DNA from: a virus
Lineage: Duplodnaviria; Heunggongvirae; Uroviricota; Caudoviricetes
Reading direction: 5' to 3' (one strand)
Length of the DNA: 4,102 nucleotides
IMG/VR virus record: IMGVR_UViG_3300029590_000219
Part shown: piece after piece, positions 1-3,000 of the stretch
How positions within the stretch are numbered: position 1 is the stretch's first letter
How the letters are laid out: each line of letters begins with the position of its first letter
Position numbers: made by a program

Positions 1-3000
1 CCTCCTTCCCCCACCGGAATGCCCTGCCCGCCAAAGCTGCTGCCGCGCGCTGGCTGCAGCCCGGCAAGCTGGACCACCAGCTTTTTGCCTGTTGGCGCGA
101 TAATGCAGCCACGTAACGCTGAACTGGTTAGTTCCATGATATTGTCAAACAGCAGGTCTGCACATCCGGCTTTCAGTGCTTCGATGCCTTCGTCTATTTG
201 TTCCTGTTTGAGTGAAGGGCGGGGAAGGTTCTGGGGCTGGAATAGCCGTCCGGCCCAACGACCGGTACGTGACGCCCCGCAGAACTGTAGCGTACCGCGT
301 AAGCGCCCGTCGTGGCTTACGCCTTTCATCAGTGCCTTGTATTTACTGGTGCTGGTAGTACTGGCCTGCAGGCGGATAGCCAGCAGTTCTTTCACGGCAG
401 ATGGTAAATCGGGGTCGGCAATACGACGTTCCAGAGTACTGCGTTGCATGTCTGGTAGCTCCACACCGTAGGATTCAACAATGTGCTTAATCAACGCGTC
501 TCGTTGTGTGGCTGCCTGCACTTCGCCATCAGTCATTTCCTGTGTACGCTTTGCCAGGCGCTTTTGTTCCTGGTCTACCGCGTCGATCGCAGCGCGTGCG
601 AGTTCCACGTCCATGCAGACGCCCCGGTCATTGATCTGCTGATCACGATGCCAGAGCGCCAGTTCTGTCCCCTGATAATTCCACTTCGGCAGACGTTTAC
701 AGACTTCGCGCATTGCCTCGATATCCAGTCCGGCGTAAGCAACAAAGCGCCGCCATTCTTCCGGGTGGGTTTTGCTGGTGGCCCGGCGCAGTTTGCTGTT
801 TTTCGGGCGTGGCTTACAGAACAGCTGGATCAGCGCTTTACCTTCTTTGTCCTTCGCTTTGTCTTGCGGGACGCCTAGTACTTCGCAGAGTTCCCCCAGA
901 GACCCCGGGAGACCGTGCGCCAGCGCCTGCACCATTGTGTCGCGCCAACGTTCGACTGGCGGTGCCAGGCGCGGCATTGCATAACGCAGGACGGTGCGGT
1001 CGAAGTGAGAGTTATGAAAATAAAGCAGGGTTTCAGGGGCTGCGATTGCTTCGTATAAGCCGTGTGGAATACCACCACCGGCAGTGATATCCCACACGTT
1101 TACTGGCCCGTCGTTGATAGCCCATGCGAACAGCATCACTTCAACGCCTTCGGCATACGCATGGGTGCCATTATTGATAGATATTTCACAGAAAGTTTCC
1201 AGGTCGCCCCATAGTATATTGGACATTGTATTTACTCCGAAGAATTAGCTACATGGATACGAAAGATATTATCTCACTTGTTGGAGTCATAATTTCAGCC
1301 ATAACTGCACCAGTCGGTGTTTATAAGTTATTTAAAGATGCTAGTTGGTTTTTACCGAAAACAACAAAATTCTCGCATATTCTGAAGAATTATCCGGAGC
1401 ATATTGAGCCTTCTGATGTAGAGTTTATGAAGGCAGAAATCAAAAGAGAAGTTAAAAAAAGTATATTAGGTATAAGTAGCCAGAAATTAAGAACGTTAGT
1501 TATTTATGTCAGAACGTATTCTGAATTGAAAATGCCGTTTTGGCAGTGGGGTTATTTAGCACCCCATATTCAGTGTAAATACGATAGATTCTTTATACGC
1601 TACAAAGGTAAATACAAACGATGTCGCTGGTGTTCTAAAGTTGTTTCTATCTTTTATTTGGCTGATGGCTTGATATTTTTCTGTTGGTCGTTAAATTATG
1701 GCGCTGTTTTTATAGGAATGAGCGCTGTTTTAATGCTGCTGTGTATATGGATGGCTTTTATGTTTTGGTTTCTTTTTCCGGGACGAGGCGTTATAAAGAA
1801 GTATAATTCCCAATTATTGAAAATAGATGCAAGTAAGTATCAGGCCAAATGATATTACAGGTCTGATACTTTGCTTTTTTTAAATCAGTGTTTTCAGACA
1901 AAACGAAGTCCTCCGTAAATTAAACGGTGATAAAAAGCCCCTGACTGAGCAGGGGCGAATTGTGGAATTAGTGTGGAAGCTGTGACGGCGGAATATATCT
2001 GCCGATGCGGTCTTCTATGGTCGGCAGAATGCACATGCTGTCGCTGAAGCGGTCATGCAGCTGGTAAACCAGTTTCGAATCCATTTTTTCGAGAGCAGGC
2101 ATTAACTGCGCCCGCCAGATTTCATTGATGCGCCGGAAGTTATGGCAGACGGCGCGGAGATTGTTGATGAACATTTCCTTCTCTGCGTCACTGACTGCTG
2201 TCTGCGCCTTCTGAATGCGTTTCGTGCTGCCGTTCCGGTAGAAGCGTTCCTGAGCAGCGACAGCCTCATCCACAGTCGGATAGCACCCGACGTAAACGCT
2301 TTTCTCTCCGTCCCATGCATAAGCCCTGTACGGATTGTATTTGCTCCGGTGATGGTAAACCATCTTCGGCAGACACTCCCTGTGTGGCGCCAGTATCGTG
2401 GAGGATTGCTGGCGAAGTTTCTTTTCGCACTCGATGAAGTATCGGCGGATCTGGCGGCCTTTTTCGTTGCGCTCCACCATCGCCAGTTCTTTGGCTGTAT
2501 CGAGAGTGAGGTGGTAGTCCTTACAAAGAACATTTTTACGCTTTCCAGTTTTGGAAAACGTTACGATATAATCCTGATTTTCAACGAATTCATAGTCTGC
2601 AATTCGTGATGTAATCCACGCTGCAAACACTTTCCCTACCCCAAGGAATGCGTGCAGATCGCGAGCATTGCAGAGCAGGGTGGTTTCGTTGGCGATAGCG
2701 CCGTTGAAAACGGGGATGAGCTGAGTTGCCATCACAGTTACCTCTAACGGTGAAATTCACCGCCACCACTGAGTTGCAAATCTCATATGGGTGGCGAACT
2801 GACGAGGTTTGCAATACCGGCGTTAGAGGAAACCGGCGCGCCGAAGCGCCCCCGCCAGCCCNNNNNNNNNNNNNNNNNNNNAAGCTTGCGACAATAAAAA
2901 AGACGCTGGCGCGTCTGGTGTCGCCCCTAACAATTCCGGGTTGCAAATCCCGATCTCCATTTGGGAGATTCGGTGAGCATAAACCGGAAGGGGGCGATGA

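Follow-up and report, generated by a model that had tools for sequence, protein, structure and literature searches.

A probable P1/P7-type C4 antisense RNA module in front of a prophage antirepressor gene

A 4,102-nt stretch of caudoviral DNA (IMG/VR record IMGVR_UViG_3300029590_000219; hereafter the window) carries on its minus strand an AntA-like gene, and upstream of that gene two short segments form an inverted repeat, one arm of which contains the Shine-Dalgarno sequence. This arrangement raises the question of whether the repeat controls translation of the gene and, if so, whether the two arms meet within one mRNA molecule or as parts of separate RNAs. We consider it most probable (roughly 85%) that its arms correspond to b' and b2, one of two contacts through which a C4 antisense RNA module of the P1/P7 type prevents translation of the prophage antirepressor.

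The inverted repeat and the gene behind it

The two arms, CCTCTAACG (2741-2749) and CGTTAGAGG (2821-2829), are exact reverse complements over 9 nt, as the first-pass annotation had stated; according to a repeat finder they reach 13 nt if one mismatch is included (2737-2749 and 2821-2833), leaving 71 nt between the arms. The distance from AGAGG to the ATG (2732-2730), previously given as 7 nt, measures 8 nt. Taken generically, a 9-nt repeat of this kind is no rarer than chance: the window contains two exact 9-mer inverted repeats at most 100 nt apart, dinucleotide shuffles contain 1.6 on average, and 45% of the shuffles contain two or more. Judged as a site-specific feature it is rare, with no exact complement of this 9-mer in any of 2000 trials in which the 112 nt upstream were shuffled. 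In our judgement from the sequence comparisons, the decisive support for the repeat is comparative and lies in the covariation of loop and ribosome-binding site across 13 homologous modules.

The designation of the downstream gene as AntA-like was borne out by Pfam (AntA, PF08346, E = 1e-24). PHROG 377 (anti-repressor Ant) matched at E = 1e-51, and the RefSeq annotation at twin loci concurs with the antirepressor identity. The first in-frame start is a GTG at 2735; homologues favour the conserved ATG. No ORF intervenes between b2, which lies 8 nt before the start codon, and the antA start.

A C4 RNA, its target sites and its leader

The upstream arm lies within a C4 antisense RNA (Table 1). 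Rfam C4 (RF01695) matches the window at 47.1 bits, above the gathering score of 45, notwithstanding a run of Ns (2862-2881) that masks the first three bases of C4 (GGC) and the presumed RNase P site and that we filled in from three near-identical loci; at the N-free twin locus L001 the same family scores 70.6 bits. Our own covariance model, R1, scores 63.3 bits in the window and 89.8 bits at L001. A strict degenerate pattern scan for the C4 core in viral contigs had returned only five loci, two of them false (L006 and L008), and the covariance model was used instead.

In the C4 fold, a closing stem of about 15 bp surrounds hairpin 1 (UUCG loop), hairpin 2 and a single-stranded junction, and the RNA ends in a 3' ACC tail. 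RNAalifold, applied to eight seed sequences, recovered 28 pairs and saw compensatory changes in 10 of these, and the single-sequence minimum-free-energy fold gave the same structure. Within the folded RNA the b' loop has a mean unpaired probability of 0.85, and the junction bases are about 0.99 unpaired. An invariant AUUAU/GG leader and a CCACC 3' end are hallmarks of an RNase P substrate, here at the sequence level only. Conserved G-U pairs, which mark a strand-specific RNA structure, are abundant in the fold, and the covariance model scores C4 at 97.7 bits on the sense strand and at 27.7 bits on the reverse strand. Because the summed loop-target duplex energies are -346 kcal/mol for the sense strand versus -402 kcal/mol for the reverse complements, with G-U in 27 of 275 pairs, it is the fold of C4 together with the model scores that supports the strandedness.

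The b' loop and b2 form nine exact pairs that cover AGAGG, and a' and a2 form 10 of 11 possible pairs (91%; inverted repeat I2) with one mismatch. Local mRNA hairpins partly bury a2 and the 5' half of b2 (unpaired probability 0.37 and 0.43, respectively), and AGAGG itself is 0.76 unpaired in the minimum-free-energy and centroid folds. Pairing of GGUGGCG with the 3' end of C4 would yield an alternative hairpin that holds a2 in its loop, and the capacity for this pairing is kept with compensatory changes in 14 module types. We found no further C4 targets elsewhere in the window.

The leader sRNA upstream of C4 matches Rfam isrK (RF01394) at 50.9 bits against a gathering score of 50, and Rfam c4-a1b1 (RF03163) at 29.8 bits, which is under the gathering score of 46.7. 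It folds into two hairpins, the second of which presents a1 in its loop, followed by b1 and an intrinsic terminator made up of a stem and a U-run. The isrK match begins at 2969, and transcription probably starts at about 2970-2969; read-through of the terminator would carry transcription from the leader into the antirepressor gene. The unit from promoter to ant shifts as a single block between prophage positions, and among prophages in which the module occupies different positions, sequence identity sets in about 20 nt before the -35 element. A whole-length RNAduplex calculation, which ignores intramolecular structure, gave -58.4 kcal/mol for the leader sRNA and C4 against a shuffled mean of -41.2 kcal/mol (sd 5.3), a hint that their complementarity may be extended. 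The promoter, the putative decoy sites on the IsrK-like sRNA and the second contact, a'/a2, were missing from the first-pass annotation.

Table 1. Features of the module in the order of transcription (coordinates of the window)
Feature	Coordinates	Strand	Sequence or content	Basis or remark
Sigma-70-like promoter	2976..3005	(-)	-35 TTGACT (3005-3000), 18-nt spacer, -10 TATGCT (2981-2976)	Promoter scan
IsrK-like leader sRNA	2896..2969	(-)		Rfam isrK RF01394, terminator scan
Leader hairpin 1	2953..2969	(-)		
Leader hairpin 2	2937..2952	(-)		a1 in loop
a1	2941..2949	(-)	GAUUUGCAA	
b1	2924..2931	(-)	GUUAGGGG	
Leader terminator stem	2901..2916	(-)		Followed by U-run
C4 antisense RNA	2790..2864	(-)	About 75 nt	Rfam C4 RF01695, covariance model R1, RNAalifold
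b' segment	2821..2829	(-)	CCUCUAACG	Hairpin-2 loop of C4, upstream arm of the repeat; complementarity to 2833 with one mismatch
a' segment	2804..2814	(-)	UUGCAAACCUC	Single-stranded junction of C4 and first bases of the closing stem's 3' strand
a2 target	2774..2784	(-)	GAGAUUUGCAA	Begins 6 nt past the C4 3' end; position as a2 in P1
GGUGGCG	2761..2767	(-)	GGUGGCG	Can pair with the C4 3' end CGCCACC (2796-2790)
b2 target	2741..2749	(-)	CGUUAGAGG	Contains Shine-Dalgarno AGAGG, downstream arm of the repeat; inverted-repeat match to b'
Antirepressor gene	1968..2732	(-)	254 aa, N-terminal AntA domain; regulated cargo	Pfam, PHROG, RefSeq
Intrinsic terminator	1937..1956	(-)		Terminator scan; past the antirepressor gene, end of module

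Covariation, mode of action and alternatives

Covariation was assessed across 13 homologous modules that represent specificity types with differing loop sequences. The b' loop pairs with its own Shine-Dalgarno window at -14.7 kcal/mol and with non-cognate windows at -6.4 kcal/mol, a cognate value that none of 100,000 permutations equalled, and the cognate partner is the best one in 12 of the 13 types, the exception being a contig with two modules that share the same b'. The corresponding energies for a'/a2 are -10.0 and -6.4 kcal/mol, and when the a and b energies are summed the cognate partner ranks first in all 13 types (0/100,000 permutations did so well). The leader segments a1 and b1 also co-vary with the C4 loops across the 13 types, with cognate and non-cognate sums of -26.4 and -17.7 kcal/mol (equalled in 0/100,000 permutations). 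In every type (13/13) a gap of 4-10 nt separates the end of b2 from the start codon, and in the closely related phages ASU11, Stx2_14040 and phiP27, which share the scaffold, all four specificity segments have been exchanged in concert. The first-pass annotation had named covariation in homologues as a check on its proposed complementarity between the upstream arm and the Shine-Dalgarno segment of the antirepressor; loop and ribosome-binding site do co-vary in these modules, and together with the P1 annotation this identifies the complementarity as the b'/b2 contact.

By analogy with P1 and Gifsy-1, the single minus-strand promoter would drive the IsrK-type leader sRNA, which the intrinsic terminator would end, and read-through transcripts would continue through C4, a2 and b2 into antA. 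RNase P cleavage before the conserved GG, predicted from homology with P1, would free C4, whose hairpin-2 loop would pair with b2 including the Shine-Dalgarno sequence while the junction segment a' pairs with a2, and both contacts would jointly block 30S binding so that the antirepressor is not made. Because C4 is a separately folded RNA, it could also reach, in trans, every copy, incoming or resident, whose a2 and b2 sequences are the same, which would make it a determinant of immunity specificity; the RNA-encoded specificity predicted for this prophage is the combination of the b' and a' sequences in Table 1. The a1 and b1 copies in the leader would bind the same C4 segments, most likely titrating C4 and thereby relieving repression. 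The C4 module would thus account for the silencing of the antirepressor of this prophage.

A purely cis mechanism, in which the arm and the Shine-Dalgarno sequence pair within one molecule and are released by heat, a protein or an sRNA, with no processed RNA acting in trans, would fit the presence of both arms on one read-through transcript, and it finds a parallel in Gifsy-1, where the full-length transcript is by itself not translated and mutations of the leader in cis increase basal expression (PMC4825925). Because the upstream arm is a loop segment of a 75-nt RNA that folds stably on its own, pairing in cis would be a pseudoknot, which is sterically possible, and not a nested stem. Folding the 5' UTR, as the first-pass annotation had suggested, left the upstream arm as an unpaired hairpin loop in the minimum-free-energy and centroid folds, with C4 retained and no nested stem at the Shine-Dalgarno sequence; when the nested 9-bp helix is imposed, the C4 fold is lost at a cost of about 4 kcal/mol. 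The closing stem, the AUUAU/GG leader and the CCACC tail moreover agree with the features that make P1 C4 an RNase P substrate (PMC5320573), Gifsy-1 has a stable processed species, STnc1160 (PMC4825925), and c4 is trans-acting in P1 (PMC12197685), all of which makes the cis mechanism improbable. The earlier idea of a translational control element survives as anti-Shine-Dalgarno pairing in principle, which the covariation supports, and not as a simple cis hairpin or thermosensor, which the folds led us to reject; nothing thermometer-like is present.

Another reading takes activation of the Gifsy-1 type as the whole mechanism, with IsrK opening the ribosome-binding site of a small ORF whose translation is then coupled into the antirepressor, and regards b'/b2 as incidental. 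The isrK family match above its gathering threshold speaks for it, as does Gifsy-1, which has the same layout and in which mutations of the orf45 start or stop lower activation (PMC4825925). In the window, the ORF that begins at the conserved AUUAUGG has 27 codons, and because its UGA (2785-2783) lies about 50 nt short of the ant ATG, coupling of the AUGA type is impossible; the ORF annotated in O121 is in a different frame and stops inside the b' loop. A covariation of b' and b2 that extends over 13 of 13 types cannot be incidental either, and we regard this reading as very improbable. Least credible of all, and close to negligible, is that the arms are a DNA-level palindrome for a regulatory protein, as the first-pass annotation had offered in the alternative, or a chance repeat. 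An isolated repeat of this length is expected by chance in a window of this size, as given above, but the site-specific chance is below 1 in 2000, and because of the covariation the chance reading is already refuted: on a constant scaffold, changes in one arm are accompanied by changes in the other and in a third copy farther upstream. The 71-bp gap, the location of the arms within a strand-specific RNA fold with G-U pairs and the low reverse-strand score likewise make a protein-binding palindrome unlikely.

Relation to known immunity systems

The immI region of P1 and P7 (c4, icd, ant1/ant2) has reportedly been described by Citron and Schuster in 1990 and 1992 and by Hartmann et al. in 1995. 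In P1, RNase P excises C4 from a longer transcript, and its b' loop occludes the ribosome-binding site while a' adds specificity (PMC5320573; also PMC12197685). The module in the window resembles immI in the order of its elements (promoter, a1, b1, terminator-like hairpin, C4, a2 and b2/RBS, according to the curated P1 annotation), in the three-helix fold of C4, whose hairpin-2 loop holds b' and whose junction holds a', in the 5' GG after AUUAU and the CCACC 3' end, and in the overlap of b2 with the Shine-Dalgarno sequence of a gene whose product is an antirepressor. Antirepressor switches based on C4 are already known from phage immunity, and the one described here is not of a new kind. Its specificity sequences are distinct and would define a new immunity type, with compensatory differences from P1 in both contacts: b' reads CUCUAAC here and CACUAAC in P1, with b2 GUUAGAG and GUUAGUG, respectively, and a' reads UUGCAA here and UGUCAA in P1, with a2 UUGCAA and UUGACA, respectively.

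The C4 RNA family is present in the window and the P1 operon layout (c4-icd-ant) is absent. In P1, the untranslated mRNA additionally undergoes premature termination; because no icd-like ORF lies between C4 and ant in the window, the P1 coupling and Rho-polarity step is not simply transferable, and C4 would target the antirepressor ribosome-binding site directly. The cargo also differs, with an AntA domain (PF08346) here and KilAC/ANT (ANT, PF03374) in P1 Ant1, and BLASTP detected no similarity between the window antirepressor and P1 Ant1 (E = 0.23). Whereas P1 is a plasmid prophage with C1 and an Op51 operator, the module in the window belongs to a prophage that is integrated, has a LexA-like repressor and carries a replication module of DUF2800, DUF2815 and a DNA polymerase.

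The CI RNA of P4, known together with seqA/seqC (cited in PMC4825925), is processed from the leader of its own operon, pairs with sites upstream and downstream of itself and serves as an immunity factor. The module would share with it a small RNA processed from a leader, complementary sites on both sides of that RNA and a role in immunity, but P4 CI RNA acts on the replication genes by ending their transcription prematurely and does not cover a ribosome-binding site, and no Rfam match to it was found in the window. In the immI region of P22, the sar RNA is a cis-antisense RNA, read from the strand opposite to ant and spanning the ant ribosome-binding site. There, as proposed here, an RNA blocks the ribosome-binding site of a temperate-phage antirepressor gene; the regulator in the window differs in lying in tandem on the same strand and in pairing through two short loop segments.

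The isrK match of the leader connects the module with Gifsy-1, in which a read-through transcript is made and anrP remains untranslated (280 versus 4 Miller units) until IsrK supplied in trans raises anrP translation 139-fold (Hershko-Shalev et al. 2016, PMC4825925). The authors of that study explain the activation by alternative structures and translational coupling through orf45, not by C4-type pairing with the Shine-Dalgarno sequence, and they liken the locus to P4 CI/seqA and not to P1 C4 (PMC4825925). Gifsy-1 differs from the window in its cargo (ORF6N there, AntA here) and in its orf45, since no ORF here ends in AUGA at the antirepressor start. We found a C4 homologue in Gifsy-1 at about positions 104-186 of the transcript (61.5 bits), whose b' loop CGGUGAU is complementary to AUCACCG adjoining the anrP Shine-Dalgarno sequence and whose a' is complementary both to a2 and to the hairpin-2 loop of IsrK. 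By a mapping of our own that uses A107 and AUG119-121 as anchors, the compensatory pairs published for Gifsy-1, G28-C162 and G31-C159, would fall on a1 and a'. That the IsrK/orf45/AnrP locus of Gifsy-1 shares this architecture is of more interest than the finding in the window itself.

These correspondences suggest one and the same regulatory device in P1 C4 and in Salmonella IsrK/STnc1160. IsrK and c4 are handled as separate systems in PMC4825925 and PMC12197685, and in Rfam isrK stands outside the C4 clan. We give about even odds to a broader reading, in which the IsrK 'Hfq-binding sRNAs' would be the terminated a1/b1 leaders of C4-type modules, acting as anti-antisense decoys that titrate C4 and so turn the antirepressor on, and in which Gifsy-1 isrK/orf45(STnc1160)/anrP and P1 immI would be one portable circuit of decoy, antisense RNA and target placed before at least five unrelated antirepressor families (AntA, Bro-N, Rha, ORF6N and icd/KilAC). 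If the device is the same, reporter constructs already made for Gifsy-1 would allow a direct test of the role of the a1/b1 sites, which have long been called 'putative'. The C4 RNA region also bears on the annotation of related records, where small 'hypothetical proteins' and antirepressor coding sequences that are too long have been called across it and can be corrected.

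The inverted repeat as part of a C4 antisense RNA module

A direct comparison bears out that CCTCTAACG (2741-2749) is the exact reverse complement of CGTTAGAGG (2821-2829); the repeat finder lengthens each arm to 13 nt when one mismatch is allowed. The downstream arm, read on the minus strand, is CGUUAGAGG and lies 8 nt upstream of an ATG at 2732, which starts a 254-aa ORF with an AntA domain (Pfam E = 1e-24; PHROG: anti-repressor Ant). Viewed alone, the 9-nt repeat is nothing unusual, as the window contains two exact 9-mer inverted repeats within 100 nt compared with a mean of 1.6 in shuffles. 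In 2000 trials with the upstream 112 nt shuffled, no complement of the Shine-Dalgarno (SD) 9-mer arose.

The DUF2815 ssDNA-binding gene and antA are separated by a gap of 380 nt, and on its minus strand an Rfam scan placed three families. The C4 match identifies the upstream arm as the hairpin 2 loop of C4 (b'); the downstream arm (b2) holds the SD. A run of 20 N at 2862-2881 masks the C4 5' end together with the putative RNase P cleavage site and the spacer ahead of it. In three near-identical E. coli prophage loci this run reads TGCCACGTTCGCATTATGGC on the minus strand, and C4 scores 70.6 bits when it is filled. The invariant AUUAU/GG leader and CCACC tail are present at the window's C4, and the element is of the known C4/immI kind.

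Elements of the RNA module upstream of antA
Element	Position	Strand	Evidence or location
isrK	2969-2896	minus	Rfam, 50.9 bits (gathering score 50)
c4-a1b1	2982-2933	minus	Rfam, 29.8 bits (under its gathering score)
C4 antisense RNA	2870-2787	minus	Rfam, 47.1 bits (gathering score 45)
a'/a2 complementarity	2804-2814 with 2774-2784		repeat finder, 10/11 pairs
a'/a1 complementarity	2803-2814 with 2941-2952		repeat finder
sigma-70-like promoter	3005-2976		one flank of leader
intrinsic terminator	2916-2896		other flank of leader

CGCCACC (2796-2790), made up of the C4 closing stem's 3' strand and the ACC tail, can alternatively pair with the downstream GGUGGCG (2767-2761), which puts a2 into a hairpin loop. 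This helix is kept with compensatory changes across 14 module types and may serve in 3' processing or in co-transcriptional switching.

Covariation and folding of the loop-to-RBS contact

C4 modules were gathered from viral contigs by a pattern scan, from contigs coding for Ant-protein relatives, from the Stx-type phages ASU11, Stx2_14040 and phiP27, and from P1. The alignment of eight seed sequences adopts the expected C4 structure with 10 compensatory pairs, and the covariance model built on it yielded 25 sense-strand matches representing 13 distinct specificity types. In all 13 types the loop of hairpin 2 has a complementary site that ends 4-10 nt ahead of the start codon, the junction (a') has one immediately 3' of C4, and a T-run terminator lies ~30-37 nt ahead of C4. 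The b' loop pairs more strongly with its cognate SD window (-14.7 kcal/mol versus -6.4 kcal/mol for non-cognate pairs), as does a' with a2 (-10.0 versus -6.4 kcal/mol). By summed energy the cognate partner ranked first in 13/13 types, a result equalled in none of 100,000 permutations; covariation with C4 extends likewise to the a1/b1 sites upstream. The three Stx-type phages have a nearly identical scaffold in which all four specificity segments changed together, a concerted swap known from P1/P7 heteroimmunity. One viral contig (L004) carries two C4 modules (3828-3913 and 10407-10494) with a common b' loop and different a' segments, which suggests that specificity may be combinatorial, with a' telling co-resident modules apart.

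The first-pass annotation had proposed either an anti-SD control element in the form of a hairpin or a protein-binding palindrome at the DNA level. The palindrome, like a chance repeat, is excluded because the arms co-vary among modules and the RNA fold at the locus is strand-specific. Anti-SD pairing is supported in that the loop-to-RBS complementarity co-varies in the 13 types, but the hairpin form does not. C4 stays intact whether the read-through RNA or the segment of C4 plus mRNA is folded, and the folded RNA presents an open junction and b' as an open loop (0.85 unpaired). AGAGG is largely unpaired (0.76) in the mRNA fragment; a2 and the 5' half of b2 lie within local hairpins. Because the nested 9-bp helix, when forced, costs ~4 kcal/mol and abolishes C4, the b'/b2 pairing is best modelled as a loop-to-linear-segment contact, predicted to be bimolecular in trans and a pseudoknot in cis, and a simple hairpin is rejected. 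A switch working purely in cis could exist as an additional mode, not as the main one. The observation was confirmed and its interpretation partly supported.

Comparison with P1 immI and Gifsy-1 isrK

In P1, RNase P excises C4 from the transcript, the b' loop occludes the RBS and a' contributes specificity (PMC5320573; PMC11143913; PMC12197685; PMC8546580). By homology, we infer that processing, trans action and translational block also apply here: RNase P would cut C4 out of the window transcript in front of GG, and its b' loop would then cover the antA RBS directly, with a' supplying specificity. The curated P1 record lists promoters, a1, b1, c4 (77 nt), a2, b2 and the icd start 10 nt on, and the window has the same order and scaffold with different a and b segments. 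Unlike P1, the window has no icd ORF, its AntA-family cargo is unrelated to Ant1, and the host element, an integrated prophage, carries a LexA-like repressor and a DUF2800/DUF2815/DNA polymerase module.

A C4 homologue (61.5 bits with our own covariance model) also lies within "orf45" of the Gifsy-1 isrK-orf45-anrP locus (NC_010392, 34316-34040, minus) studied in PMC4825925, at transcript positions ~104-186, and matches STnc1160, a stable processed RNA mentioned there. Placing +1 at 34316 fits that paper's numbering (A107 as first AUG, 119-121 as second AUG), and its compensatory pairs G28-C162 and G31-C159 then land on the IsrK a1 loop and the C4 a' segment. The anrP SD adjoins AUCACCG, the complement of the b' loop CGGUGAU. 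According to PMC4825925 the transcript is produced while anrP stays silent, and supplying IsrK in trans activates anrP 139-fold; these data fit C4-type repression lifted by an a1/b1 decoy. The authors themselves invoked alternative structures and orf45 coupling, and likened the locus to P4 CI. Because the orf45 equivalent in the window ends 50 nt short of the ant ATG, coupling of the Gifsy-1 type is impossible there. IsrK and C4 are handled as unrelated in PMC4825925, a 2025 review (PMC12197685) and Rfam clans; as a by-product, the present comparison suggests that they may be unified.

Cassette mobility, cargo and neighbouring genes

In one genome the promoter-to-ant block precedes the polymerase gene, in another it follows it, and identity between prophages carrying it begins just upstream of -35; it therefore behaves as a mobile cassette. 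In homologues the RNA module precedes AntA, Bro-N, Rha or ORF6N proteins, a 72-aa ORF or icd/KilAC. Four IMG/VR contigs (L015-L018) encode, 3' of a C4 of another specificity type than the window's, a protein joining a Bro-N N-terminal domain to the C-terminal domain seen in the AntA protein of the window (residues 48-253 are 73% identical), a case of antirepressor domain shuffling behind a constant RNA regulator.

The RefSeq 45-aa hypothetical protein WP_001300362.1 of E. coli O121 (L002, 4064-4201; ~window 2962-2824, minus) spans the stretch between IsrK hairpin 1 and a UAA within the C4 b' loop and is almost certainly an ORF called over non-coding RNA. The CDSs annotated as antirepressor or 'regulatory protein' in ASU11 (L089, 1424-2086), Stx2_14040 (L090, 1253-2086) and phiP27 (L091, 1427-2086) reach ~100-157 codons further upstream in frame, across promoter, IsrK-like leader and C4. 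A conserved SD and ATG lie at locus position ~1724, and the start sites given in these records are probably wrong.

An AT-rich cassette (1228-1966; GC 0.34-0.36 versus ~0.55 in the flanks) separates the ant terminator from the DNA polymerase gene and looks like a moron or candidate defence gene. The product of its plus-strand ORF (1250-1852), a 200-aa protein hydrophobic at its ends, had no Pfam or PADLOC match and matched phrog_10579 weakly; the cassette has its own terminator-like repeat (1835-1871). It is absent from the twin prophage locus L001 and was found in just 7 of 5426 complete E. coli genomes. For the prophage DNA polymerase, of which the N-terminal 408 aa are encoded here (3-1226, minus), this segment had no Pfam-A match at E <= 0.01 but matches PHROG 17, DNA polymerase (2.5e-67).
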